A DNA stretch of 64,000 nucleotides, taken from an uncultured Methylomirabilota bacterium. Lineage in GTDB: Bacteria; Methylomirabilota; Methylomirabilia; Methylomirabilales; 2-02-FULL-66-22. The stretch spans positions 19 through 64,018 of the forward strand of contig CAVOIV010000029.1 of assembly GCA_963695995.1 (NCBI GenBank), read 5' to 3'. The notes beneath the pieces are model-generated. The model was not told where the DNA came from, searched no databases, and was given only the letters and a program-made list of their open reading frames with translations. Made by a program: the position numbers and the translations under genes. Within the stretch, counting starts at the first letter, position 1. Each line of letters starts with the position of its first letter. Below are positions 5,766 through 54,949 of this stretch, one piece after another.

Positions 5766-6806
5766 ATGACACGGCGATCCGTACTTTCGGTCGGTCTCAC
5801 CCTGACCATCTTGTTGGTCGGCACGATCCTCGCCCCCCGCGAGAGCGTCTCCGGTACAGCCAACTTCCCCAAGATGGATATCAAGCTGGCCCATGTGATC
5901 CCTGCCGAAACCTCCGTGAACAAGGGCGCACTGAAGTTCGCGGAACTGATGAAGGAGCGCACCGGCGGGGCCATTAATGTCCAGGTGTTCCCGAATGGCC
6001 AGTTGGGCAGCGAGAAGGACATCGTCGAGCAGGTGCGGAACGGCCTCATCCATATGGCCACCATCGGAGGGACGTTTCTGGCCAACATTGACGGATGGGG
6101 GGCCATGGGGGTGTTTGCCATGCCGTACATCCTCAAGGCGGCCACCGAAGAAGAGCAGCTGGCCGTCATGAATCGGCTGGCCCGGGGACCCATCATGCAG
6201 GAGGCCACGGCGAAGGCCCCGGCGATCAGCGGCCTGCGCGCGCTGGACACGAACTGGTTCTACGGAATGCGGCACCTGACCACCGGGAAGAAGCAGGTGA
6301 CCAAGGCGGACGATCTCAAGGGGATGAAGATCCGCACGCCGGATGCGCCTCTGGCGCGTCTCCCCATGGCCGCGCTCGGCGCCGCCGTGACGCCGTTGTC
6401 CATGCAGGAAGTCTACTCGGCGCTCCAGATGGGGGTCGTGGACGGGCAGGAGAACCCGATCAACACCATCTACACGGCGAAGCTCTACGAAGTCCAAAAG
6501 TACATCACCCTCACCGGCCACCAGACGCAGAACCTCTGCGCGATCATCAACGAGAAGTTCTACCAAAGCCTGTCGCCGGAGCTACGGGCGCTGTTCGAGA
6601 AGACGGCGATGGAGGCCGGGGATTTCCAGAGCAATCTCCAGATCAAGGTGAATAAGGAGAATCTGGAGGATATGAAGAAGAAGGGCGTGGTCGTAAACAC
6701 GGTGAACCGGCCCGAGTTTGCGGAGAAGACGAAGAACGCCTGGAAGGACTTCGAGGGGAAGCTCGGCAAGGGACTGTACGAGAAGATCCTCGCAGCGCAG
6801 AACTAG
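5766..6806 (+). CDS. dctP: TRAP transporter substrate-binding protein (DctP family)
   Basis: Intact 346-aa ORF with a signal peptide and the motifs NVQVFPNGQLGSEKDIVEQVRNG and MGVVDGQENP. RBS AGGAGG is upstream. Confidence 0.9.
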   Translation: MTRRSVLSVGLTLTILLVGTILAPRESVSGTANFPKMDIKLAHVIPAETSVNKGALKFAELMKERTGGAINVQVFPNGQLGSEKDIVEQVRNGLIHMATIGGTFLANIDGWGAMGVFAMPYILKAATEEEQLAVMNRLARGPIMQEATAKAPAISGLRALDTNWFYGMRHLTTGKKQVTKADDLKGMKIRTPDAPLARLPMAALGAAVTPLSMQEVYSALQMGVVDGQENPINTIYTAKLYEVQKYITLTGHQTQNLCAIINEKFYQSLSPELRALFEKTAMEAGDFQSNLQIKVNKENLEDMKKKGVVVNTVNRPEFAEKTKNAWKDFEGKLGKGLYEKILAAQN

Positions 6807-7385: not shown

Positions 7386-8658
7386 TCACGCTGTTTCTCC
7401 TGATGCTGGCCCTCTTCGCCATCGCCATGCCCGTCGCCTGGTCCATGGCCATGGCCAGCACCGTCTACATGGTCCTCGGCCCGAAGATCCCCTTGCAGGC
7501 TGTCATACAGCGGATGATCGGCGGGATCGACACGTTCCCGCTGCTGGCGATCCCCTTCTTCATTCTGGCCGGCAACCTGATGAACACGGGAGGCGTCACC
7601 GACCGACTGGTGCGTTTCTCGAAGGCCCTGGTCGGCCACATCCGGGGCGGACTGGCGCACGTGGTCGTGGTCACCAACATGATCATGGCCGGCATGTCCG
7701 GTTCGGGGATCGCGGACGCGGCGGGCTCCGGAGCGGTGCTCATCCCCGCGATGCAGCGGGCGGGGTACGGCGTGCCCTTTGCGGCAGCCGTCGTCGCCGC
7801 GGCCGGCACCATCGGTCCCATCATCCCCCCCAGCATTCCCTTCGTCATTTACGGCTCCCTGGCGAATACCTCCATCGGACGGCTCCTCTTGGCCGGCGCG
7901 GTGCCCGGCGTCCTGATGGGTATCATGCTCATGGCGTACATCTGCGTGGTCGCCAGGCGGCGCGGTTATCCGGCCGAGATGCGCGCAAGCCGCCGCGAGC
8001 TTGCAGGCGGCGCTCCAGGCCATTCCGCCCATGGGGATGCCGATCATCATCCTGGGCGGCATCATCGTCGGCGTCATGACGCCGACGGAGGCGGCGGCGG
8101 CCGGCGCGACGTATGCCTTCGTGCTCGGCTTCTTCGTCTACGGCGAACTGCGGCTCCGCGACCTCCCCAAGATTCTGACCGAGTCGGTTGGGAACGGCCG
8201 CCGTCGCCATCATCATTTCGGCGGCCCAGCCGATGAGCTGGATTCTCACCTACGAGCAGGCGCCCATGAAGGTGCTCGCCCTCTTCCAGGACGCGCAGTT
8301 GTCGAAGGCGGTGCTGCTGCTGATCTTCAACGTGATTCTGCTGATGCTCGGCTGCTTCATGGAAGGGTTGGCGGTGATGGTGATGGCGGTCCCCGTGTTG
8401 ATGCCGCTCCTCCAGTCGGCCGGGATCGATCCGCTCCACTTCGGGGTGGTGTTCGTCCTCAACGCCATGATCGGCACCATCACCCCGCCCGTCGGCACCA
8501 TCATGTACGTGGTCTGCGCCTTGGGCAAGATCTCGATCGGGCAGTTCAGCCGGGAGGCCTGGCCGTTGATCGTCACCCTCATTCTCTGCCTGGGGATTGT
8601 GACCTACGTGCCGATTCTCTCGACGTGGCTTCCGGATCTCTTGATGCCGCTGCGCTGA
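7382..8658 (+). CDS. dctM: TRAP large permease (DctM), frame-disrupted (2 breaks near 7995 and 8195)
   Basis: MITLFLLMLALF...FPLLAIPFFILAGNLMN...HIRGGLAHV continues in two other phases (IPPMGMPIIILGG..., then TAAVAIIISAAQPMSW...ITPPVG). Confidence 0.85.
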
Positions 8659-19031: not shown

Positions 19032-20045
19032 CTACTTCCGCGTCGCCTCGATCGCCTTGAAGAGGCTGTCCACGTACTCCTTGCCGATCTCCTTCTCCGC
19101 CCACGCCTTGACCGGCGGCTGGGCGAGGTTGCGGAATTTCGCGAGCTCGGCGGGTGTGATCTCCGTGACCTCCATGCCGAGCTTCCCGAGGATCTCCTTG
19201 GCGTTCTTGTCCTGATCGCTCGTCATCTTGCGGTGGATAGCCGTGGCCTTCTGCGTGCCCTCCTCCACCGCCTTCCGCTCGACGGCCGAGAGGCCCTGGT
19301 AGTACTTCTCGTTGATCGTGTAGCCATGGACGCTCCAGACGTGGCCGTCCAGGGTGATGTACTTCTGGTACTGGTACAGGCTGGCGGCCAGGATGTTGGT
19401 CACGCCGTTTTCCTGCCCGTCCACGACCTTCTGCTGCAGGGCCGTCGGCAGCTCCGCCCAGGGGATCGCCGAGGGGCTGGCGCCGAGGGAATTGACGAGG
19501 GTTTGGAACACGGGGCTGGGCATGACGCGCATCTTGAGCCCCTTCATGTCGTCAGGGGTGTGGATGGGCCGCTTGCTGTTGGTGAAGTGGCGTACCCCGT
19601 TGTCGGCGAACGACAGCAGCCGCACCCCGGTCTTCTTGATCATGTCGTCGGAGAACTCCTTCAGCCAGGGGCTGTCGTACACCCGCCACGCGTGCTCGTG
19701 GTTCTCGTAAAGGAACGGGATGCCGAGAACTCCGACGGGCTTGTAGATCACGGCGATGGCGCCGTCATGGGCCACGGCCATGTCCAGCGTGCCGAGCCGG
19801 AGCCCCGACATGGTGTCGGCGTCGTTTCCGAACTGGCCGGCCGGAAAGATCTCGACCTTGATGGAGCCGTTGGTCGCCTTCTCGACGTGCTCCTTGAACG
19901 CGAGTGCGGCGGCATGCTTCGGCTGGTCGGGCCGGGCAGGCTGGAAATGGGCATACTTGAGCACCTTTTGCTGCGCGAACGCGTTCACCGGAAGGGCGAG
20001 CAATACGACCGCCAGGACTATGAGATACCCGCTTCTCCGCTTCAT
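19032..20045 (-). CDS. dctP: TRAP transporter substrate-binding protein (DctP family)
   Basis: MKRRSGYLIVLAVVLLALPVNAFAQQ signal peptide, FPAGQFGNDADTMSGLRLG and QQKVVDGQENG. RBS GGAGGAGG. This is the C-terminal third of the 1001-aa track ORF. Confidence 0.9.
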   Translation of the reverse strand: MKRRSGYLIVLAVVLLALPVNAFAQQKVLKYAHFQPARPDQPKHAAALAFKEHVEKATNGSIKVEIFPAGQFGNDADTMSGLRLGTLDMAVAHDGAIAVIYKPVGVLGIPFLYENHEHAWRVYDSPWLKEFSDDMIKKTGVRLLSFADNGVRHFTNSKRPIHTPDDMKGLKMRVMPSPVFQTLVNSLGASPSAIPWAELPTALQQKVVDGQENGVTNILAASLYQYQKYITLDGHVWSVHGYTINEKYYQGLSAVERKAVEEGTQKATAIHRKMTSDQDKNAKEILGKLGMEVTEITPAELAKFRNLAQPPVKAWAEKEIGKEYVDSLFKAIEATRK

Positions 20046-20071: not shown

Positions 20072-21361
20072 TTAACGAGCGAACCCGAACCATCTGGGCA
20101 GGGTCACGCTGATCGCCGGGATGTACACAACCATCGCAAGCACCACCATGAGCGCAAATATCATGGGCAGGATGGCCCGCGAGAGCTTCGCGAAGTTCAG
20201 TTGGCCGACGGCCGTGATGATGAAGAGGACGGCACCCACGGGGGGCGTCACCATGCCGATCGTGATGTTGAGTACGAAGGCCATGGCGAAGTGCAGCGGA
20301 TCGATCCCCACCTGGTCCGCCACGGGGGCGAGCACGGGCACCAGGATGATCACGGCGGGGAGAGTATCGATGAACAGCCCGCAGATCAACACGAAGATCG
20401 CGACGAGCGTTATGATGATGGTTGGGTTGCGGCTCAGGCCGGTGATGTACGCCGCGACGGTCTGCGGGACCTGGACCAGCGTCAGGATATTGGCGAACAG
20501 GGATGCCATGGAGACGATCACCAGGGCCGCCGAGCTGACGAGCGCGCTCTGCACCACGACCTTGGGAAGAATCCGCAGAGTCAGTTTCTTGGTGACGAAG
20601 AATCCGATGAAGAGGGCGTAGAACACCCCCACGGCGGAGGCCTCGGTAGCCGTGAAGATGCCGCCCAGGATCCCGCCGATGATGATCACCGGCATGAGCA
20701 AGGCCGGGACGGCCCGCCACATACTGAGCAGCCGCTCCCGCCAGCCCACCAGGGGCGAGCGGAACAGGTAGTTGCGTCGGACCGCCGTCACGTGGTTCAC
20801 CAGACAGAGGGCCAGGCCCATGAGGATGCCGGGAACCACGCCGGCCAGAAACAGCCCCGCCACGGTCACCTTGCTGTCGGTGATGGCGTAGATCACCATG
20901 ATGATGCTGGGGGGAATGATGGGCCCGATGGTGGCGTTGGCGGCGGTCAGGGCCGCGGAGTAATACTCGTCGTACCCCGCCTTCTTCATCATGCGCATGA
21001 CCAACGCGCCGGGGCCCGCGGCGTCTGCCAGCGCGGAGCCGCTGATCCCGGAGAAGATCATCTCCGTCAGCACGTTGACATGCCCGAGGCCGCCCCGGAT
21101 GTGGCCGACCAGGTTGTTGGTGAAGCGGAGCAGGGACATGGTGATGCCGCTCGCACTCATGAGGTCGGCCGCCAGGATGAAGAACGGGACCGCCATCAGG
21201 GGGAAGGAGTTGATCCCGTTGAAGAACCGCTGGGGCACGGTCAGGAGCGACAGCTTGCCGTCCGCCAGCAGGGCCAGGAATCCCGACCCACCCATGCTGA
21301 TGGCGACGGGAAAGCCGATCGCCATACCCAGGAAGAAGGTGACGATGAGTGTGATCCCCAT
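20072..21361 (-). CDS. dctM: TRAP large permease (DctM), intact
   Basis: 429 aa with FPLMAVPFFILAADLMS, HIRGGLGHVNV, GPIIPPSI and MVTPPVG. Confidence 0.92.
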   Translation of the reverse strand: MGITLIVTFFLGMAIGFPVAISMGGSGFLALLADGKLSLLTVPQRFFNGINSFPLMAVPFFILAADLMSASGITMSLLRFTNNLVGHIRGGLGHVNVLTEMIFSGISGSALADAAGPGALVMRMMKKAGYDEYYSAALTAANATIGPIIPPSIIMVIYAITDSKVTVAGLFLAGVVPGILMGLALCLVNHVTAVRRNYLFRSPLVGWRERLLSMWRAVPALLMPVIIIGGILGGIFTATEASAVGVFYALFIGFFVTKKLTLRILPKVVVQSALVSSAALVIVSMASLFANILTLVQVPQTVAAYITGLSRNPTIIITLVAIFVLICGLFIDTLPAVIILVPVLAPVADQVGIDPLHFAMAFVLNITIGMVTPPVGAVLFIITAVGQLNFAKLSRAILPMIFALMVVLAMVVYIPAISVTLPRWFGFAR

Positions 21362-42291: not shown

Positions 42292-44154
42292 CACCCGGTC
42301 CCCCACAGGGCATCGCGCAGCCCGGAGGAGCGGGTGAGGCAACGGGAGACAGCGGCGGCGAAGACCTCGGCGCTGCCCCAGATCTCGACGCGGGAGCGGG
42401 CGCGCGTGAGGCCGGTGTAGACAAGCTCGCGCGTCATGACCGGCGTGAGCTCGTCCGGGAGGATCAGCAGGATCTCGTCCGCTTCGGAGCCCTGGCTCTT
42501 GTGGACCGTGGCGGCATAGGCAGTCTCGTGCTCGGGCAGCCGGGCGGGCGGCGAGCCGTCGCAGGCCGCCCTCGGCCGTGCGGAAGAAGACGCGGAACCT
42601 GCCGCTCCGCCGCCGGGTCGGCCAGCGTGATGCCCAGGTCCCCGTTGAAGAGGCGAAGGTTGTAGTCGTTCGCCGTGACCAGCACCGGTCGGCCGTGGTA
42701 CCAGGGCGTCCGCGGGCGAATCGCGCGTCGCGACTCCAGGCAGCTCGCGATGAGCGTGTTCAGGGCCTCGACGCCGTAGGGACCGGTGCGGTGGGCGCAC
42801 AGGACGCGGAACCGCTCCAGGGCCGTCAGGGCCGCCTCGGGGGTCTCGGCAGCCAGGTACGCCCCCAGCCTTTCCGCGATCTCGGCGAGCCGCGACGCGA
42901 GATCCCGGGGCGACTCCAATGGACGCCAGACGATATCCTCGCACTCGCCTCGCGTCGAGGAGGTCCAGGGCCGATCGGCCGTCCCCCCGGTTCACGAGGT
43001 GCGCCAGTCGGCCGATGCCGCTGTCCTGGCCGAAGCGGTAGCTCCGCGTGAGCTGGACGATGGCGTCGCGGATCGGCGGCCCCGATTCGTCCGCCGATCC
43101 ATCGCGGGACGCTGCGCCGCCCGCGTCCGCCGGATCGTGTCCGGTCACCTCGATCAATCGCCGCCGAAAGGCCGGCGAGAATCCCGGCGAGTCGCCGCAG
43201 ATGTCGCCCAGCACCGCGCCGGCCTCGACCGAGGCGAGCTGGTCCTTGTCCCCGAGCAGGATCAGGCGCGCCGTTCTCGGCACGGCCCGGACCAGCTTCG
43301 CCATGAGGGCCAGGTCCACCATGGAGGCCTCGTCCACGACCAGGACGTCCACCGGCAAGGGATTGTCCCGATCGTGCCGGAAGTCGACCGACCCCGGCCG
43401 GAAACCCAGCAGCCGGTGGATCGTCGTCGCCTCGACGGGGATGGCATCGCGAATGCGGGCATCCACCGGCAGCGTCTCCCGGCTGGCGCGGATGGCCTCC
43501 TGCATCCTCGCCGCCGCCTTGCCCGGTGGGGGCCGCGAGGGCGATGCGGAGGGGGGCCGCGCGCCTGCTCCAGCAGCAGGGCGAGGATGCGCACCACGGT
43601 GGTGGTCTTGCCCGTCCCCGGACCGCCGGAGATGACGCAGAAGCGCTTCAGCGCGGCCACGGCGGCGGCCAGGCGCTGCCGGTCCGCTTCGCCTCGGCCG
43701 CAGGCGGGAAGAGCCGATCGAGCGCCGTCCCGCAGGCGCCGCGGGTCCACATCGGCCGGATCGTCGGCGATGCGGGCCTGGAGGTCCGAGCGACGAGCTC
43801 GTGCTCGTAGGCCCAGTAGCGATACAGATACAGGCGGCCGGCCTCGTCCAGGATGAGCGGCGCGTAGTCGCCCGGCCGGCCCACCACCTGGTGTCGTCGC
43901 AGGGCCTCGCACCAGACGCGCGAGCGGCGGGGCGAGCCCCGGCTCGCCCTCGCCCAGCGCGGCGAGCGGCTGCCCGGCGGCGTCGGCCAGGCTCACGCAG
44001 ATGTGCTCCCTGGCTCGTCGCGCGGCAGACCAGGCGCGCGGCGAGCGCGAGGAGGGGATCCTCGCTGCCCGGCCAGCCGCGACAGCAGCCGGGCCATGTG
44101 CGCGTCCAGGCCGCCGGTCTCGGCGATCGCCTGCGCGTTCGCCCAGATCTTCAT
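42291..44154 (-). pseudogene. recD: RecD (exodeoxyribonuclease V alpha), at least 10 frame breaks
   Basis: [37 protein letters not shown] and [12 protein letters not shown] are spread over all three phases (ORFs 43262..44194, 43648..43887, 42291..43505, 42464..42919). Confidence 0.88.
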
Positions 44155-44168
44155 GCCACATCTCCTGG

Positions 44169-44320
44169 CAGAGCGACAAGAGACTCGTCTTCACCCAGGC
44201 TGCTCAAAAAGGTCCAGATGCAAGGCGGCACGCCGGAGGCCGAGCGAGGCGTACTGGAGGTACGCCGCAGCGAGTGCCGAGGCGGGCCAACGCCGCAGAT
44301 GGGCCTTTTTCAGCAGCCTG
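44169..44320. repeat. Imperfect-palindrome intergenic repeat (MITE/ERIC-like), copy 1
   Basis: Homologous to 51203-51348 and 54803-54949. The 125-bp core at 44196-44320 has near-perfect 21-bp terminal inverted repeats (CAGGCTGCTCAAAAAGGTCCA / TGGGCCTTTTTCAGCAGCCTG). Confidence 0.85.
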
Positions 44321-47300
44321 AGGCCAGGTACCGATCCAGCGCGACGATCAACGCCTCGGAGGGCCGGTCGCGATAGACGCCGAAGTCCGGGCCTCGCGCC
44401 GGATCCATCCCCCGCACGAACAGGTAGAACACGCCGCCGAAGTCCCGCTCGTACCGGTACTCCGGCAGCCGCTGCGAGAGATACCGGGTGAGCGCGACGG
44501 TGTAGATCAGGTACTGCAGGTCGTAGGCTTCCCGGGCCATCACCTGGGGCAGCCGCTCCGCCCGGTAGGCGTCCGGTCCCTCGCCCAGCCAGTTCGACTT
44601 GTAGTCCGCGAGGTAATAGCGGCCTCCCGCCTCGAAGACCAGGTCCATGGAGCCGGTCATGTAGCCTCGCACCGGGTCGAATGCTCAGCTCCTGGATCCG
44701 GCCCTCGGATGGCTCCGTCGTGGCCGTGCTGCGCGGAGCAGGGCGGTCAGCCGTCGCGGATCGAGGCGGGCCACCGGATAGTGGAACATCAGCTCGTCCA
44801 GCCGCTCCGCGCGCGCCACGCGGGCCAGGCAGAGACCGGTGGCGGCATCCAGCGGCGTCCGCAGGACGCTTCTCCACCATGTCCGCCACGGCGGTCTGCC
44901 AGGCCACATCGAAGCCGTGCTCGCGGAGCGCGTCGCCGCGCGGCCGCCTCGATGCACGGTCCCGGTCGGCCCGCGCGAAATCCAGCGAGGCGAAGAGGGC
45001 GTGCATGAAGATTCCCGCCCGGACGCCGCGCGGGAAGTCGGCGATGTCGGACGGGGCGCCTGGCCCGGCAGGACCGTCCGTCCGCCTCGCTCCGGCGAGG
45101 GGGCGGCATCGTAATCCGGCGCCTCCCGATGGCTGCCCGCCGTGAGCCCCGAGAAGCTGGTGACCTGCCAGCCCTTCGGGATCCGTCCCGGCGAAGGGCC
45201 GCGCCTGGAGCGACTCCGGGACGGGTGCCGAGGGGACGGGCGCCGGCGGCTCCGCCGGGGAGACGCTCTCGACCGCGATCACGCCCCCGGCGCTCTGCGC
45301 CAGCCGCATGAGATCCGCCAGGACCTCCCGGTCGCTCGAGGCCCTTGGCCCGCTCGCGGACGGAGGCCGCCCGGTCCGCCCCCGCGCGCCAGCTCCGCCG
45401 GCTGATGCAGCAGGTAGGCCAGCCCCGACAGCTCCCCCCCGTTGATGTTCCCCCACACGACCGTGCAGCGATGCTCGGCGCGCGTCAGGGCAACGTACGC
45501 GAGCCGCAGATGCTCCGCCAGCGCCTCGCGCTCGGCCAGCGCCCGCGCCTCGTCGAACCGGTCCGATCCCGCGTCCAGCGTGGGCGCGATTCTCGGCGGC
45601 CGGGTCGTGGAACAGCACGCCGAGCTCCTTCGTCCTTGCCGCGCAGCGAGCACGTCCCACAGGAACGGGCAGAAGACCACCGGGTACTGCAGGCCCTTGC
45701 TCTTGTGGATGGTGGCGATCTTCACCAGGTTCTCGTCGCTCTCCAGGCGAAGCTGGGCCTCCTCGGGCGCCGTCTCTCCATTCTGCCGGTGGGCCGCCAG
45801 CCAGTCGATCAGGCCTTCCATCCCCAGGTGGTCCGCGGCGGCCGCAGCCTGCAGCAGTTCCGTGAGGTGCAGGACGTTGGTGAGCCGCCGCTCGCCGTCC
45901 TCGAATCGCCAGGAGGCGCGCCGCCACACCCTCCGCCTTCATCAGCCGGCGGAACATCTGGACGAATCCCTGGTCCCGCCAGAGCGTCTGGTACTCCAGG
46001 AACGCGTTCGCCCGCGCCTCCCAGGCCGCCTCGTCCTCGCCGAGCGACCTCCAGCGCGTTCCCGCCGAGGCCGAAGAGATCCGTGGCCAGGGCGGCCCGG
46101 ACCAGCGACTCGCGCCCCGGCTGCGCCACGGCCAGGAGGACGCGCTCGATCTCCGCCGCCTCGTGCGTCTCGAAGACGCTCGCCTCGCCGAGCTGGACGC
46201 TGGCGACGCCCCGCGCGAGGAGCGCCGCCCGCACCCGGTCGGCCTGGGCGTTGGTCCGCACCAGGACCGCGATGTCCCCGCCGCGGAGCGCCGTCTCCCC
46301 GATCCGGGCCTCGCCCCGGCCGGCCGCCGCGAGAAGCCGCGCGATCTCGGCCGCCGTGGCCTGGATCGCCGCGTCCGCGGCCTTCCCCTTGGGCAGCGGC
46401 TCGCGCTCGTCCGCGCGGGAGAGGCACCAGATCCGGAGCGGCGCATCGGCGTCCCCCGCCACCGAGAGGACGTTGCGCTCCTTCTCGGCCGGCCGCACCG
46501 GGAGGAACTCGATCTCGTCGAACAGGAACGGGCTCGCCCGCACCGCCGAACACGGCGTTCACCGCCCGGACCAGCCCGGGGGCGGAGCGCCAGTTCCGAT
46601 CCAGCGTTCGCCTCGCCTCCGCGTCGCGGCCCGCCGCCAGATAGGCGAAGATGTCCGCACCCCGGAAGCCGAAGATGGCCTGCTTGGGATCCCCCACCAG
46701 GAAGACCGGGAGCCGGCTTGCGCCGTAGATCCGCCTGAAGATCGAGTACTGGACGGGATCGGTGTCCTGGAACTCGTCGATCAGCGCCGCGGAGTAACGC
46801 CGGCGCAGGCCCGCGGCCAGCGCCGCGCCGTGCGGGGCCTCGAGCGCGCTGGTCCAGGCGCAGCAGGAGATCCTGGTACGCGGTGAGCTGCCGGCGCTCC
46901 TTCCGCACGGCCAGCTCTCGCCGGCAGTAGTCGAGGAGCTCCAGCTTGAGCGTCTTGGCCCGGAACGCGAGGTACTCCACCAGCGACTGCCAGGCCTCCG
47001 TCAGCCGCTCGCAGGCCGCGAAGAACGGGTGGGCCGGCGGGGCGCACCCCTTCTTGGCGGCCGGACCGCAACGCGCCCGACCGTGAACTTCTCGACGCGG
47101 GCACACCAGGCGGCGTGCGCCTCGGCCGGCCGCAGGAAGGCATCGATCTCGTCCAGCCAGACCGGGAGGGATCTCGGCGGGTACTTGGAGGCGTTCAGCG
47201 AGGTCTGGCTGCGAAGCAGCGTCTCGATCGCCGCCCGGTCCGCGTCCCAGAGACCCCGTGCCTCGCGGTAGCGGGTCTCGTAGAGCGCCTCGGCCTCGGA

Positions 47301-47948
47301 AGAATCGGCCGGCGGCGTTGGGGGTCGGACGGTAAGCGACATCCTCCGCAGGTACGGCCGCACGCTCCTGGCGAGCTCCTCCGGGCTCCACCCCCGCCGC
47401 AGCAGATACCCCACCAGGAGCCGTGATCCCCGGTAGAGGCGCTTCCGCCAGAAATCGTCCACGACCTCTTGCAGGATCTCCCCCTCGTCCGGGACCAGCT
47501 CGGCCTCGAACGGCTGGCCGCTCTCGAAGGCACCCTCCTTGAGCACACGCTGGCAGAAACCGTGGATGGTGAGGATCGCCGCCTCGTCGAACCCCTGGAC
47601 CGCCTGGGCGAGCCGGCGTGCGGCCGCGGCGCGCTCCGGGATGCGGGCCAGCAATCCGGCCAGGACCCCGTCCCTGGGATTCGCCAGGACCCCGCGTTCA
47701 AACGCCCCGCGTGCCGCTTCCAGTCTGGCGCGGATCCGGTCGCGCAGCTCCGCCGTGGCGGCCACCGTGAAGGTGACGACCAGGATCTGATCCACCGGCC
47801 GGCCGCCCTCCAGCACCAGCCGCAGGTAGAGATCCGCCAGAGTGTGGGTCTTCCCCGTCCCGGCGCTGGCCTCGATGAGGTGGAGACCTTCCAGGGGCTC
47901 CGCCAGGATGTCCAGCGGTCGGGTCCGGCCGTGCGCCCGCCCGCTCAT
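44310..47948 (-). pseudogene. recB: RecB (exodeoxyribonuclease V beta), at least 12 frame breaks
   Basis: EASAGTGKTHTL, LIDEFQDTDPVQ, GDPKQAIFGFRGAD, TIHKSKGLQYPVVF, YVALTRA and the nuclease motif DLVFEAGGRYYLADYKSN are scattered over three phases. The start overlaps the recC stop (ATGA). Confidence 0.9.
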
Positions 47949-50900
47949 GGCCGTCGGTGCTCCAGCATGGGCAAGAACACCTCCCGCGCCAGCCGCTCGA
48001 AGTCGGCGTCCAGCGGGTCCTGGCTCCGAAACACCAGGCGGTGGTACGGGTCCTGTCCTTCCGGGGTCTTCTTCGAGAAGTCGTTTCCGACCCAGACCGT
48101 GCGGGCGGCCGCCAGCGCCCGCTCTTCGCCCTGGCCCTTCTGCAGGCGCTCGGCGTAGGCGAAACTCGCCTCCGGAAAGAGATGCAGGGGCTGCGAGAGT
48201 CCCGCCCAATAGATCCCGGCCAGCGCCGCGAGACGCGGCAGCGGATCCTCGACCGGTCCCAACAGGATCGTCTCCTCCTCGCCGACCCAGCAGCTCTCGC
48301 GGGCCACCCCCGGCGGCCGAAGGCTATTCAGGAGCAGGTGCCGGAGCCAGAGCGCGATCCAATCTTTCGGCTTGGCCGTGGTCAGCCGGTAATCCAGGAG
48401 ACCCTGCCCGCTCACGCCCGTCAGCCAGCCGGTCAGCCGGATGGGGCCGAGGTCGCAGTCCACGGGGATCGGGTCCGGCCGCTCGGCGGGTCGCCGCTCT
48501 TCGAGGCGCCTGGCGAAGGCCTCGACCTTCTCCGCCTCCCCGGCGAAGAGCACCTCTCCCACGCGGCCCTGCGGCAGTCGCCCGCCGCCTCGGGCGACCT
48601 CCCAGGCGTCGGCCGGCGAGCCACCGGCGAGCCGGAGGTCGAGCAGCTCCTGTCGCAGCTCGTAGGCGGCCAGCCCGTCGAGGGTGAACGGCTCACGACT
48701 CTCCAGCAGCCCTTCCTGCTCCTCCAGGTGGATCCGCAGCCGCTCGCGGACCAGGTACTTCACCGGCTGCCGAAAGAAACGGATGAAGCGGGCCACATCC
48801 ACCGTGCGCCACTCGCCCGGCGGCTCCGCCAGGGGGTGCGCCAGGAACGGCTGCGGGCCGGGGGAGGTCCGCCACCGCCGGCTGGCCTCGCAGAATTCCT
48901 CCGAGTAGCTGAAGAGCTGCGACCCGGCCCCGCCGCCCCGGAAGTAGCGCGGGCTGAAGGCGTGCAGCGGATGGCGCGTGACCAGCCGGTCGCGGAGCGT
49001 GCCTTCACCCTCCGGAGGAGCGAACCCGCGCTCCGCGTAGTCCAGGAGCTCGCTCACCAGAACCGAGGGCGGGAGTTTCGCGTTGTCCCGGTTGCTCTGC
49101 CCCACGTAGCTCAGGTACAGGACGCGGCGTGCCGAGACGACGGCCTCCAGGAACAGATAGCGGTCGTCGTCGCGGCGGGACCGGTCGCCGGTGCGGACGT
49201 TCTCGCTCATCAGGTCGAAGCCCGGCGCACGCCGGCTGCGCGGATAGCTCCCGTCGTTCAGCCCGATGAGGCAGACCACCTGGAAGGGGACGCTCCGCAT
49301 CGGGAGCATGGCACAGAACGTCACCCGCCCCGCCAGGAAGCGCCCGCCGCCCCGCGGATCTCCCAGCGCGGCCTGGAGCGCGGACCGGACGACGGCGAGC
49401 GAGACCGGAGTGCCGAAGTCGGCCTGGGCCGCCTCCGCAGCAAGCGCCGCGGCCGCCCGGCGGATGTCGGCGACCTGCTCCTCCTCGTCCTCGTCGGCAT
49501 CCAGGAAGCGGCCGAGGAGGCGCACGAGGAGGTCCGCCCATCCTGCGACCGGGCGGGCGCGCGACAGCTCTTCCCGCGCGGCGAAGAGGGCCTCGGCGAA
49601 GGAGCAGAGCCGACCCAGAATCCGGCTGGCCGCCCCCTCGATCTCGTCGTAGGGCAGGATGCCCTCGAAGAGCCGCCGCCCGCCCGCGGGCAGGGCGTAG
49701 CCCAGCAGCAGCCGGTCCAGGCCGGCGCGCCAGGTGTGCTCCGCGGTCGCAGGCAGGTCGAGGGCCGCGCGGCTCTCCCCGTCCACCCCCCAGCGCACCC
49801 CCGTGGCCCGGACCCAGTCCTGGATCTGCGGCCAGGTCGCCCTCCGCGATGCCGAACCGCCGGCGCACCGGCTCGATCTCCAGCAGGCCCAGCACCTGCT
49901 CCGCCCCGAAGCGGCCCTCCGCGATTTCCAGCAGCGAGAAGAAGGCAGTTACCACCGGGCTCTCCGCCCGCTGACGGCGATCCGCGATGCTGAAGGGAAT
50001 CCGCCGGTCCGGCTCCGCGGTGCCGAAGACTGCCTCGATGAACGGGGCGTAGGCCTCGATGTCCGGGGTCATGACGGCGACATCCCCCGGCTCGAGCCCT
50101 GGGTCCGCCTCGAACAGGGCCAGGAGCTGATCGTAGAGGACCTCCACCTCGCGCATGGGGCCGTGACAGGAGTGGACCTGGACCGAACAGTCATCGGAGC
50201 GGAGGCGGGTGCGGGGAGCGCCGTCCTCCCCCCGGTTCCGCAGGGTGAGGATGTCGGTCTGGAGACAGTGGAGCAGGGTGTCCTCGCCGGGCTCCTCGAA
50301 CTCCCCCAGCTCGTGCGGGTCGTAATCCAGGAGCAGCCCGAGGAAATCCCGCCCCTGCTTGCCGCAGGCGGCCAGCAGGCTGTTGCCGGTCTCTAGGTAT
50401 AGCTCGCGCGGATCCCGGTCTTTGACGCGCCGGGCGATCTCGCGCGCGGATCGAATCTCGGCCCAGAACTGCCGGCAGGGGTTGAGCAGGAAGAGATGGA
50501 CGTCCAGGCGCTCGGCCAACCGGGCGAAGACCTCGAGCTGCGCCGGCGGCAGCGTCGGGATGCCGAAGAGGCTGAGCCGGGAGGGGAGCCCGAACGGTTC
50601 GGACGGCACACCGTCGAGCGCGGCCAGGAAACGCGCCTGCACCCGCACCCGGTGGATGCCCCCGACCGACCGGACCAGCTCGCGCCAGAGGGGCGCGTGC
50701 CAGGACTCCCCGCCCCCCCGCTCCCAGTCCAGGATCCAGTCCGGCCGGTAGACCAGATACTGGTCGAACAGGTCGGCGATCCGCGAGGCGAGCTGATGGC
50801 GGCGGAGGTCGTCCTCGGCATCCGCGAGATAGGCGCGGAGCGGGGCGAAGACCTCTCCGCCGGCGATGGTGGGGAGCAGTCCCATCAGACGCCAGACCAG

Positions 50901-51202: not shown

Positions 51203-51348
51203 CAGGATGCTGACAAAACTCGTTTTCACTCAGGCTGCTCAAAAGGTCCAGCCGCAAGGCGGACGCCCATCGAGCGGGCGTACTAGCGGTACGTCGCAGC
51301 GCCGCGCGAGCGCGAGCAACGCAGCAGATGGGCCTTTTCAGCGACCTG
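51203..51348. repeat. Imperfect-palindrome intergenic repeat (MITE/ERIC-like), copy 2, flanked by CTAG/CTAG
   Basis: CTAG at 51199-51202 and at 51349-51352. The termini are CAGGATGCTGACAAAA on the left and the reverse complement CAGGTCGCTGAAAAGG on the right. Confidence 0.85.
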
Positions 51349-53255
51349 CTAGATGATCTGGCTGTGGTAGCTGGCCTGAACGTCCTCGCACCAGTTCCCC
51401 ACGTTCCAGACGCCGTAGGCGCCGAGGCCGCCCAGCGGATCGGGTCCGTAGTAGACCGGCACGTGCACCAGCGAGAGCCCCTCGTGCCGGGACGCCTCCG
51501 TCAGGGCGACCCACAGCGCGTCCGGGGTGTCGCCGCCCGAGAGCGCCTTCACCCCGGGCACCGCCGAGGCCAGGCGGACGTAATCCACCGGCACCGCGTC
51601 ATGCGTCCGGAACGCCTCGCCGTACTGCGCCTCCTGCAAGCCCGAGATGGCCGCCATCCGACGATTGTCCAGCAGGAGGATCGTCCCGCGGGCGCCGTGC
51701 AGGACGCCGTCCACCAGGACCTGCGGATTCATGAAGAACGACCCGTCCCCGCTGAAGGCGATCCCGTACTGCGGCCGGTCCGCCACGCCCGACGCGAGGA
51801 GTGCGCTCACCGCAAACCCCATGTGCGAGGCCCCTGTCTCCGTGATCGTCTGGTTCGGCTCGTCGTCCTCCGCCACCTGGAATCCGACCGCCTGCACATC
51901 GCCGGCGTCGAAGAACTTCACGGCGCGAATGCTGTTGGCGAAGTCGCAGGCGATCTTGATCGCTGCGGGCTGCGTCAGGACGGGCCGCCCCCACATCGGC
52001 GTCGCGCAGGACCGGGTGGGCGTAGCGCTCGGCCTTGAGGGCTTGCCATTCCCGCTTCTTCGCCGCCGTGGCGTCGAGCCAGGCCTCGGCCCGTCCCAGG
52101 TCGACCCCGCCCTGCTTCTGGAGCGCCTCCCGGAGCTGACCGATCACGACCCCGATATCCCCCGCCAGGGCCACGGTCCGGTTGTAGTGGGTGACGTCGC
52201 CGAGGTCCGCGTTGATGTTGATCACGGCGGACGCCGACGCGTAGCCCGTCCCCGAGCAATCCGCCTGACACACCCCCCGCGACCCGATGACGATCAGGAG
52301 GTCGGCGTGGCTGGTCGCATAGTTGCCGGAGAGCGACCCCTTGCTCCCCATCACGCCCATGTTCCGCGGGTGCTCGTCGGGCAGCACCCCGAGCGCGCCG
52401 GGCGACAGCACGGCGACGCGCACCGATCGCCTCGACGAGGGCCCGCACCTGCCGGGCAAAGGCGCGGGCGCCACCGCCCACCTTGACGACGATCCGGCGA
52501 TGCGTCTGGATGAGCCCGAGCGCTGCGGCCACGATCGCCGGATCCCCGACCGCCATGGGTGGCGGCGCGAGCGGCCCGGGAAGCGCCTCCAGGTTCAGGC
52601 GCGCGATCCGCGCCGGCTGGGTATTGAGCGGCAGGAGCAGAAAGAACGGACCGGCCCGGAACGAGCGGTGGACGGCCAGGCTCCCGCGGCGCAGCGCCGC
52701 GCGCAGGGCCTCGGGCGTGTGCAGGACGTAGGACTCGCCCATCAGGGCCGTGAGCTGGCCGAAGAGGCCCTGCGCGTGCTTGGGGATGGCCTGCATGTTC
52801 GGCCCCTCCCCGTGGGTCGTCTCGTCCCCGTAGATGTGGTAGACGCCGATCCCGTTGGACGCGGCGGCGAGCGAGCCCGCAAAGGCATGCAGCGCCCCCG
52901 GCCCGATGGAGGTCACCACCGCGGCCGTCTCGCCGTAGTGCCACTTCAGCGCGGTGGCCGCGTGGGCCATGGCGGTCTCGTGGCGGAAGTTGTAGGTCCG
53001 CGTGAGGCCGGCGGCCTCATAGACCCGGAGCACCTCCGCGAGATCCGTGGAGCCGTGCCCGAAGACCGCCAGGTACTTCCGCACGCCTTGCTTCAGGAGG
53101 CCCAGGACCAGACCTTCCGCCAGCGTCGTGTCGATCGGATTGGGGAGCGTGCCGCCCGCCAGCGCCGCCTCGAGGCCGCCCGCCTCCGCGATCGTCTGCG
53201 CCCGCCGCTCCATGGCGATCAGCCGCGCGACGTGCTGCTTCGGAATCTGCCCCAT
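51349..53255 (-). CDS. Thiamine-pyrophosphate-dependent enzyme (acetolactate synthase / IolD-like), 2 frame breaks near 52440 and 52005
   Basis: FGHGSTDL...FRHETAMAHAA at the N-terminus, a middle domain, and the TPP motif GDGSFFMN...LLLDN. The protein runs through three successive phases. Confidence 0.8.
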
Positions 53256-53487
53256 AGTTGCGACCTCCCTCACGTCCCTACCCCGATGCGGTTGCCGGCT
53301 CGGAGAGCGTAGTCTACACTGACCCGCCAAGGTGGACGCAAGCGCTTTCTGTCGGCCCGCCGCGACCGGCCCGGTGTGCGTACCAGGGCGCCCCGGGTCG
53401 CCGCGAGACCGAATGCGTGCGGGGGGCTGGCACGCCTTCCGCCGCCCCCCGCAGATCGGTGGCTCCCGTGAATCCCCGGCCGCGCTC

Positions 53488-54802: not shown

Positions 54803-54949
54803 GGTTCCTGTAAACCCGATTCCCCAGGCTGCTCAAAAAGGCTCAGATGCAAGGCGGCATGCCGTAGACCGAGCGAGGCGTACTGGAGGTACGCCGCAGC
54901 GAGTGGCGAGGCGGGCCAACGCCGCAGATGGGCCGTTTTCAGCGAACTG
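54803..54949. repeat. Imperfect-palindrome intergenic repeat (MITE/ERIC-like), copy 3, flanked by TTAG/CTAG
   Basis: The core at 54825-54949 is near-identical to copy 1. It abuts the glcE TAG stop (54950-54952). Confidence 0.85.

Follow-up and report, generated by a model that had tools for sequence, protein, structure and literature searches.

The present end of recB in the stretch of DNA analyzed here (the window; 64,000 nt) falls within a copy of a repeat that lies between recB and recD, which raises the question of where the recB stop codon comes from, what has become of the native end of the gene, and whether the two subunit genes remain coupled. We regard it as highly probable that a 152-bp MITE, mobilized by an IS5-family transposase, was inserted between the last conserved RecB residue and an old stop/start overlap of recB and recD, that a stop codon in its terminal inverted repeat (TIR) now ends recB, and that the native end of the gene was displaced.

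Layout of the junction and quality of the assembly

The recB end had been placed correctly by the first-pass annotation (...DRYLASGC-TGA, stop at 44312-44310) when the minus strand is read: the gene ends ...GTC GCG CTG GAT CGG TAC CTG GCC TCA GGC TGC TGA AAAAGGCCCATCTGC..., for a RecB C-terminus of ...ALDRYLASGC-stop. The recB frame is broken upstream of 44672 in the window assembly, and only its last 120 codons are open. Gene identities were assigned through the orthologues in the sister-species genome G005; RecD scored 401.8 bits against TIGR01447 (cut-off 310) and also matched Pfam RecD_N, and the C-terminal half of RecB matched NCBIfam TIGR00609 with E = 2e-129, with a score below the full-length cut-off since only half of recB was submitted. 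The RecB of G005 was also aligned with E. coli RecB (1w36_B; E = 5e-90), and the alignment extends only as far as ...DRYLA, at residue 1173 of 1180; the insertion thus lies after the last alignable residue. The features of the junction are summarized in Table 1.

Table 1. Features of the recB-recD junction in the window (positions 44151-44672)
Feature	Position	Strand	Remarks
3' part of recB	44313..44672	-	Open frame, 120 codons; end of the nuclease domain, ...FYLFVRGMDPARGPDFGVYRDRPSEALIVALDRYLASGC
Current recB stop TGA	44310..44312	-	Inside a terminal inverted repeat of the MITE, at the base of its hairpin stem
MITE hairpin body	44196..44320	.	125 bp; ~26-nt imperfect terminal inverted repeats CAGGCTGCTSAAAAAGG...
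MITE outer terminal repeat ('tail')	44169..44195	.	27 nt; diverged third terminal-repeat copy
Relic of the pre-insertion recB end	44151..44168	-	CCA GGA GAT GTG GCA TGA (= ..GDVA-stop)
recD Shine-Dalgarno AGGAGA	44161..44166	-	6 nt 5' of ATG
recD start codon ATG	44152..44154	-	The G005 orthologue starts at the same ATG

The 125-bp hairpin that had been described between the two genes was found as expected: CAGGCTGCTGAAAAAGG... runs from 44320 onward, and its inverted partner ...CCTTTTTGAGCAGCCTG reaches to 44196. The 125-nt core is predicted to fold as a single long hairpin of -68.6 kcal/mol in the mRNA sense, with the recB UGA paired in the base of the stem, and the predicted fold of the 206-nt junction has a z of -3.2 versus shuffles. 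The tail follows (GGTGAAGACGAGTCTCTTGTCGCTCTG, running to 44169) in a variant that is found also in two relatives (L035 and L045). The distance from the element to the recD ATG at 44154, with its ribosome-binding site AGGAGA, had been estimated at about 15 nt and was measured as 14 nt (CC-AGGAGA-TGTGGC-ATG). This copy is flanked by GCCT towards recB and by CCAG towards recD. Neither is a YTAR tetranucleotide, in agreement with the first-pass annotation as far as the window is concerned, but the absence on the recD side is secondary, since three relatives have retained CTAG there.

The genes recC, recB and recD and a neighboring gene are frameshifted in the window assembly. An alignment with seven relatives revealed 17 private insertions of 1-2 nt within 2.2 kb of recB/recD in the window, and no private indels in three control sequences; the only private gaps of the window, of 12 nt and 4 nt, are both at alignment ends. 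When compared with G005, small insertions amount to 4-12 per kb in recD/recB (42-47 kb) and to 0-4 per kb in recC, the neighboring genes (48-53 kb) and at 58 kb. Frame-breaking insertions span 42300-47900 (recD, recB) and are found also at 49790 (recC) and at 51600-53300.

With all three genes frameshifted, 17 private insertions that are matched by none in three relatives, and a concentration of insertions at 42-47 kb, recBCD might be read as a decaying pseudogene operon in this organism and the MITE insertion as part of the decay; any effect on expression would then be irrelevant here. We consider this unlikely, as all 17 private small events are insertions of 1-2 nt at an indel-to-substitution ratio of ~1:1, the neighboring TPP-enzyme gene carries such insertions too, the completeness of the genome (5.9 Mb) is only 77%, and element-bearing alleles that were assembled elsewhere have open recB ends and recD starts. 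The terminal branch of the window is short (0.0085; few private substitutions), and insertions alone, accompanied by so few substitutions, resemble consensus error rather than decay. The private insertions are probably consensus errors of a strain-mixed long-read assembly, and small insertions of this kind probably account for the completeness estimate as well.

A misassembly at the junction itself, caused by the repeat, would have to be considered for an element so highly repeated in an assembly so error-prone, but is very improbable: the ...GGC TGC TGA junction with its TIR-donated stop is found in five independent metagenome contigs, and a collapsed form of it in the 6-contig genome of a sister species. 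The recB-recD junction, as distinct from the frames around it, is corroborated by independent assemblies.

The repeat family and its IS5-family relatives

The repeat at 44169-44320 is an IS5-derived MITE, i.e. a non-autonomous DNA transposon. Searches of the window's own genome (5.94 Mb, 66% G+C) with BLAST and iterated nhmmer yielded ~205 copies, of which 180 are near full length. Over 138 nt the window copy agrees with the family consensus at 98% identity (E = 8e-63), and with ~205 genome copies (nhmmer) the repeat match at recB is far beyond chance. Alignment of the copies with their flanks revealed that the repeat unit exceeds the hairpin, which is preceded by a conserved 27-nt tail (plus-strand consensus CAGGATGCTGAAAAACCCGTTTTCGCC); the unit of 152 bp therefore comprises the 27-nt outer terminal repeat and the 125-nt hairpin, and has no coding capacity. 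Terminal inverted repeats are present as CAGGCTGCTSAAAAAGGYCCA at both hairpin ends and as the outer CAGGATGCTGAAAAAC.

The 152-bp unit is bounded on both sides by YTAR (CTAG, TTAG, CTAA, TTAA). In a set of 25 copies whose flanks both contain TA, 12 have the same tetranucleotide on the left as on the right, versus 4.8 under random pairing and never more than 11 in 2000 shuffles, which indicates a 4-bp target duplication for the family; for the recB copy in the window this duplication is absent. The MITE is present in 18 of the 20 genus genomes searched and in one genome of a second family, and orthologous recB-recD sites are polymorphic for its presence. A scan of 43-56 kb against Rfam (E <= 1) gave no match for the repeat, its sole hit being a chance P10, and a literature search for MITEs in Methylomirabilota found no paper describing this family.

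Two more copies are found in the window at 51203-51348 and 54803-54949, flanked by CTAG/CTAG and TTAG/CTAG, respectively; the hairpin end of each adjoins a CTAG. Variant subfamilies that share the terminal repeats and differ in their interiors are represented in the own genome at C29:122868-123000 and C57:80464 and in the window at ~14055; one of them is AT-rich with TTCGAA palindromes, and another has GGGTACCC in its interior. A simple pattern search of the own genome for further collapsed hairpins yielded none, its matches being tails or variant subfamilies. A first-pass search of G022, a 3.8-Mb genome from the second family of the order, gave 716 candidate matches, far above the count of any genome of the window's genus, which suggests a MITE burst in G022. 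Apart from the MITE, the window contains two pairs of long inverted repeats of ~70% complementarity (7508-7853 with 20887-21232, and 6418-6521 with 19341-19444), the partners lying some 13 kb from each other; these are probably oppositely oriented paralogous genes.

Four-bp duplications at YTAR are the known target rule of IS5 elements (ISfinder), of which IS5 of E. coli is the textbook member. Autonomous elements with matching ends are found in relatives. The genome G028 encodes an IS5-family transposase (L071; NF033581, 274 bits, cut-off 140) in a 1333-bp element bounded as CTAG|CAGGATGCGGAAAAAG...CCGCACCCTG|CTAG, and an IS end in G014, of the same genus as the window, reads CTAG|CAGGATGCTGAAAAAC (L072), its first 16 nt being identical to the consensus MITE tail. 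The elements of G028 and G014 (NF033581 transpos_IS5_4 type) have in common with the repeat the terminal CAGGATGC(T/G)GAAAAA and the CTAG flanks, and it is from these shared ends and the shared target that the repeat is classified as an IS5-derived MITE, which would be mobilized by an IS5-family transposase. In contrast to such IS elements, the MITE has 152 bp and no transposase gene; an additional copy of the terminal repeat lies inside it, and the interior of its hairpin is long and GC-rich. No full-length parent IS with matching ends was found in the window's own genome assembly; IS4/IS5-like genes on contigs C8 and C50 of this genome were rejected as parents because of other ends or because they are broken.

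Many copies of the family lie at the ends of genes. A stop triplet abuts the hairpin end in 84 of the 123 oriented copies in the own genome, with an upstream frame that looks coding by GC3 in 50 of these 84. An in-frame TAR inside the YTAR can only be the gene's own stop, and such copies therefore sit exactly on native stops. In ten own-genome copies, that at recB included, a coding-looking frame runs into the terminal repeat in phase 1 and is closed as xGC-TGA. In G005 and G014, whose sequences are far cleaner, 30 loci were examined; 15 copies there adjoin the stop of an open reading frame of at least 100 codons, and in four cases (L087, L090, L095, L106) AGC-TGA caps an open frame upstream that is between 102 and at least 299 codons long. 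As the ten frames of the own genome and the four of G005 and G014 all end xGC-stop, capping is a property of the family, and the recB copy is not special in this respect.

Empty, full and decayed junctions in relatives

Junctions were collected from genomes of the genus (NC10/Methylomirabilota MAGs) and from metagenome contigs with the RecB C-terminus as probe. In six element-free lineages the recB stop overlaps the recD start, either as GTGA, with RecB ending ...LAQGEVA (L037), ...LAQGAVA (L009) or ...LARGDAA (L044), or as ATGA, with RecB ending ...LASGDGGRG (G018/L008/L043), ...LAVGDGGR (G013) or ...FAEGGAR (G004/L041/L042); one further empty junction (L006) has a short spacer. One base is likewise shared by the two genes in E. 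coli K-12. The earlier assumption that recB and recD are normally coupled is thus borne out, and in the window the overlap has given way to a spacer of 155 nt that separates the new stop from the recD ATG.

Seven distinct alleles carry the element or its remnant. The full element with its tail is found in the window, in L038/L040, in L045 (with an enlarged hairpin) and in L046 (with a near-consensus tail); the full hairpin is found without the tail in L036; the hairpin is collapsed to 22 nt (CTGGGCTCTTTTGAGCAGCCTG) with the tail present in L035, and collapsed with the tail absent in G005/L039. The recB end GCC TCA GGC TGC TGA of the window recurs in four independent metagenome alleles (L038/L040, L045, L046), and L036 reads ACA GGC TGC TGA. 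The collapsed alleles have lost 103 nt of the hairpin, with the genes intact, and their RecB ends ...SGLF-TGA (CTC TTT TGA) with a stop from the other terminal repeat. The natural decay products (L035, L036, L002/L039) thus comprise the reduction of the hairpin to 22 nt and the loss of the 27-nt tail between direct CA(G/T)CCTG repeats.

The similarity of the recB end to the repeat terminus might be coincidental, or the boundary misplaced, if orthologues without the element had the same C-terminus, and the Ser and Gly of ...ASGC do occur in an element-free orthologue (G018, ...LASGDGGRG). However, none of the aligned C-termini from element-free relatives ends ...GC, and none has Cys-TGA at this position; the TGC TGA is located 7-12 nt within a terminal repeat that ~200 copies have conserved, and the collapsed alleles draw their stop from the other terminal repeat. 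We therefore rate coincidence as extremely unlikely. The proposal that (S)GC-stop derives from the terminal repeat holds for the Cys codon and the TGA; the Ser and Gly are also ancestral, as seen in G018, so that only Cys and the stop are clearly new.

The first-pass annotation had further concluded that the insertion replaced the native 3' end of recB. The native end was instead displaced, and it is still legible 3' of the element as CCAGGAGATGTGGCATGA, adjoining and overlapping the recD ATG. This relic is in frame with recB; it agrees with the recB end of L037 (CAG GGA GAA GTG GCG TGA) at 14 of 18 positions in an ungapped comparison by eye, and, as in L037, it finishes with a stop/start overlap, its TGA (44153-44151) having kept the recB frame. 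The two CAGG tetranucleotides, of which the first is at 44320 and the second at 44167, are 153 nt apart. In L035, L045 and L046 the site of the relic reads CTAGGAGAC, i.e. CTA GGA GAC GTG GCA TGA in L035 and L045 and CTA GGA GAC GCG GCA TGA in L046, and the recD-side CTAG of these three relatives is the canonical target of the family. The CCAG of the window, the first four bases of the relic, is therefore a mutated CTAG target site, and the native recB end now serves only as Shine-Dalgarno site and start for recD.

The recB-side target copy is absent in all element-bearing alleles (GCCT|CAGG in those with a tail, ACTA|CAGG in L036), and since the recB copy shows no target-site duplication, its mechanism of insertion is reconstructed, not observed. 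In the simplest reconstruction, an ancestor reading ...GCC YTA GGA GAC GTG GCA TGA would have received the element in a YTAR site (TTAG or CTAG) that lay five codons upstream of the native stop, and in a reading phase (YTA|G) in which the terminal repeat gives an immediate stop, yielding ...YTA GCA GGC TGC TGA; a 3-nt in-frame deletion would then have removed the recB-side target copy to yield ...TCA GGC TGC TGA. The undeleted form (L/I-A-G-C-stop) is found at other loci in the cleaner genomes (L106, TTA GCA GGC TGC TGA; L095, ATA GCA...). An alternative route, with an ancestral CAG-to-TAG nonsense mutation that created CTAG, followed by the insertion and a 2-nt deletion, is less parsimonious than the phase-1 insertion and 3-nt deletion, though neither is provable.

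In a maximum-likelihood tree of 2.2 kb flanking recB/recD, the element-bearing alleles are not united, and a single-origin clade of these alleles was rejected (AU test for monophyly, p = 3e-7); simple vertical inheritance is therefore not claimed. Full and collapsed hairpins each occur both with and without the tail, so that all four combinations are represented, which suggests recombination among populations. Given this together with the incongruent tree, a single insertion needs later recombination between populations, or recurrent deletions. The shared unusual recB-side junction argues for one insertion, and the incongruence is then indicative of either recombination among populations or chimerism of metagenome contigs. 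The divergence between window positions 40000-62000 and the syntenic block in sister species G005 (C2:779000-798900; L084) ranges from ~4% (50-53 kb) to ~15% (47-49 kb), and the locus looks mosaic. The allele is old and tolerated: it is present in several diverged populations, with the hairpin collapsed or the tail lost in some of them.

Consequences for RecB and RecD, and known systems

For RecB, the insertion has exchanged four to six variable residues for Gly-Cys, or for Ser-Gly-Cys with a hybrid Ser codon. Four to five native codons, none of them conserved, persist with the ATGA overlap as non-coding sequence that carries the recD Shine-Dalgarno and start, and an untranslated spacer of 155 nt with a hairpin of -68 kcal/mol would stand in for the stop/start overlap. 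The recD gene keeps its start and Shine-Dalgarno, which formerly lay inside recB; with the overlap lost, RecD would have to be initiated independently at its own AGGAGA/ATG. All element-bearing alleles have ATG and a GGAGA-type Shine-Dalgarno, and three of the six overlap-type element-free alleles (L037, L009, L044) have a GTG start and weaker sites. The predicted mean unpaired probability of the ribosome-binding region is 0.41-0.53 in full and 0.12-0.47 in empty alleles; for the window it is 0.46, no lower than in element-free alleles. These values fit a change from coupled to independent recD initiation, in a comparison of few and related sequences.

The first-pass annotation had also suggested that the hairpin might alter the RecB:RecD ratio or mRNA decay, and both could be affected. 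A scan for promoters and terminators on both strands of 43900-44600 gave no such signal; the hairpin is followed by GGUGAAGACGAG in the mRNA sense, which differs from the GC-rich hairpin plus U tract of an intrinsic terminator. In a further reading, quite unlikely in our estimate, the long hairpin in place of the overlap would reduce the synthesis of RecD relative to RecB or uncouple the two to the point that part of the enzyme pool is RecBC without RecD, which in E. coli is nuclease-poor, Chi-independent and hyper-recombinogenic; the element would then be a heritable switch of recombination and anti-phage nuclease activity, and such a switch would fit the mosaic, recombining look of the locus among populations.

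The hairpin might also be a selected regulatory device that tunes the RecB:RecD ratio or stabilizes the recC-recB message, for example as a 3'-exonuclease barrier, as an RNase III site, or as a ribosome-stalling structure at the stop codon. The hairpin is intact in at least five diverged populations, with the recB stop codon in its stem base, and recD has the stronger Shine-Dalgarno and ATG in element-bearing alleles; by analogy, repression of translation has been proposed or reported for stable MITE or REP stems near stop codons (so a passage in the discussion of PMC5896051, with its ref. 41). However, two allele types (L035, G005/L039) have dispensed with most of the hairpin while the genes stayed intact, the MITE lies behind or inside many unrelated genes, the junction lacks promoter or terminator signals in the scan described above, and a near-neutral insertion would persist likewise. 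Selection for regulation is improbable on this balance, and we retain the reading of a tolerated MITE insertion whose TIR supplies the recB stop.

Abundant short palindromic repeats that are co-transcribed with neighboring genes are represented by the Correia elements of Neisseria and the enterobacterial REP/BIME, which are reported to affect mRNA processing, stability or translation where they lie near stop codons. REP units are ~35 nt long, lack flanking duplications and depend on RAYT, and Correia elements duplicate TA. The present family differs from REP/BIME in its unit of 152 bp and its flanking YTAR duplications, and the recB-recD MITE differs from Correia and REP elements in that no RNase III, IHF or promoter function is predicted for it and it has no Rfam match. 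A parallel is found in Coxiella burnetii, where QMITE1 and QMITE2 extend by 1-50 bp into the 3' ends of functional genes, among them the repair genes recN, ruvB and mutT, and where in one case the MITE supplies C-terminal residues with a stop just downstream (PMC5896051). The recB-recD case resembles these in the overlap with a gene 3' end; it differs in host phylum, sequence and parent element, in that one and the same site can be followed through its empty, full and decayed states, and in that the MITE breaks a stop/start overlap between two subunits of one enzyme.

The recB-recD junction is thus a well-resolved but ordinary instance of a known MITE effect and is not conceptually new. It provides a natural series of a MITE remodeling a gene end, in which related populations preserve the site before insertion, the complete insertion and two products of its decay, and with the original stop/start overlap displaced and still legible. 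This MITE family routinely gives host genes their stop codons (xGC-TGA). Gene callers will give altered C-termini at such sites in NC10/Methylomirabilota MAGs. For the organisms, the junction indicates that the coupling of two subunits in the main double-strand-break repair enzyme can be broken and yet be tolerated.
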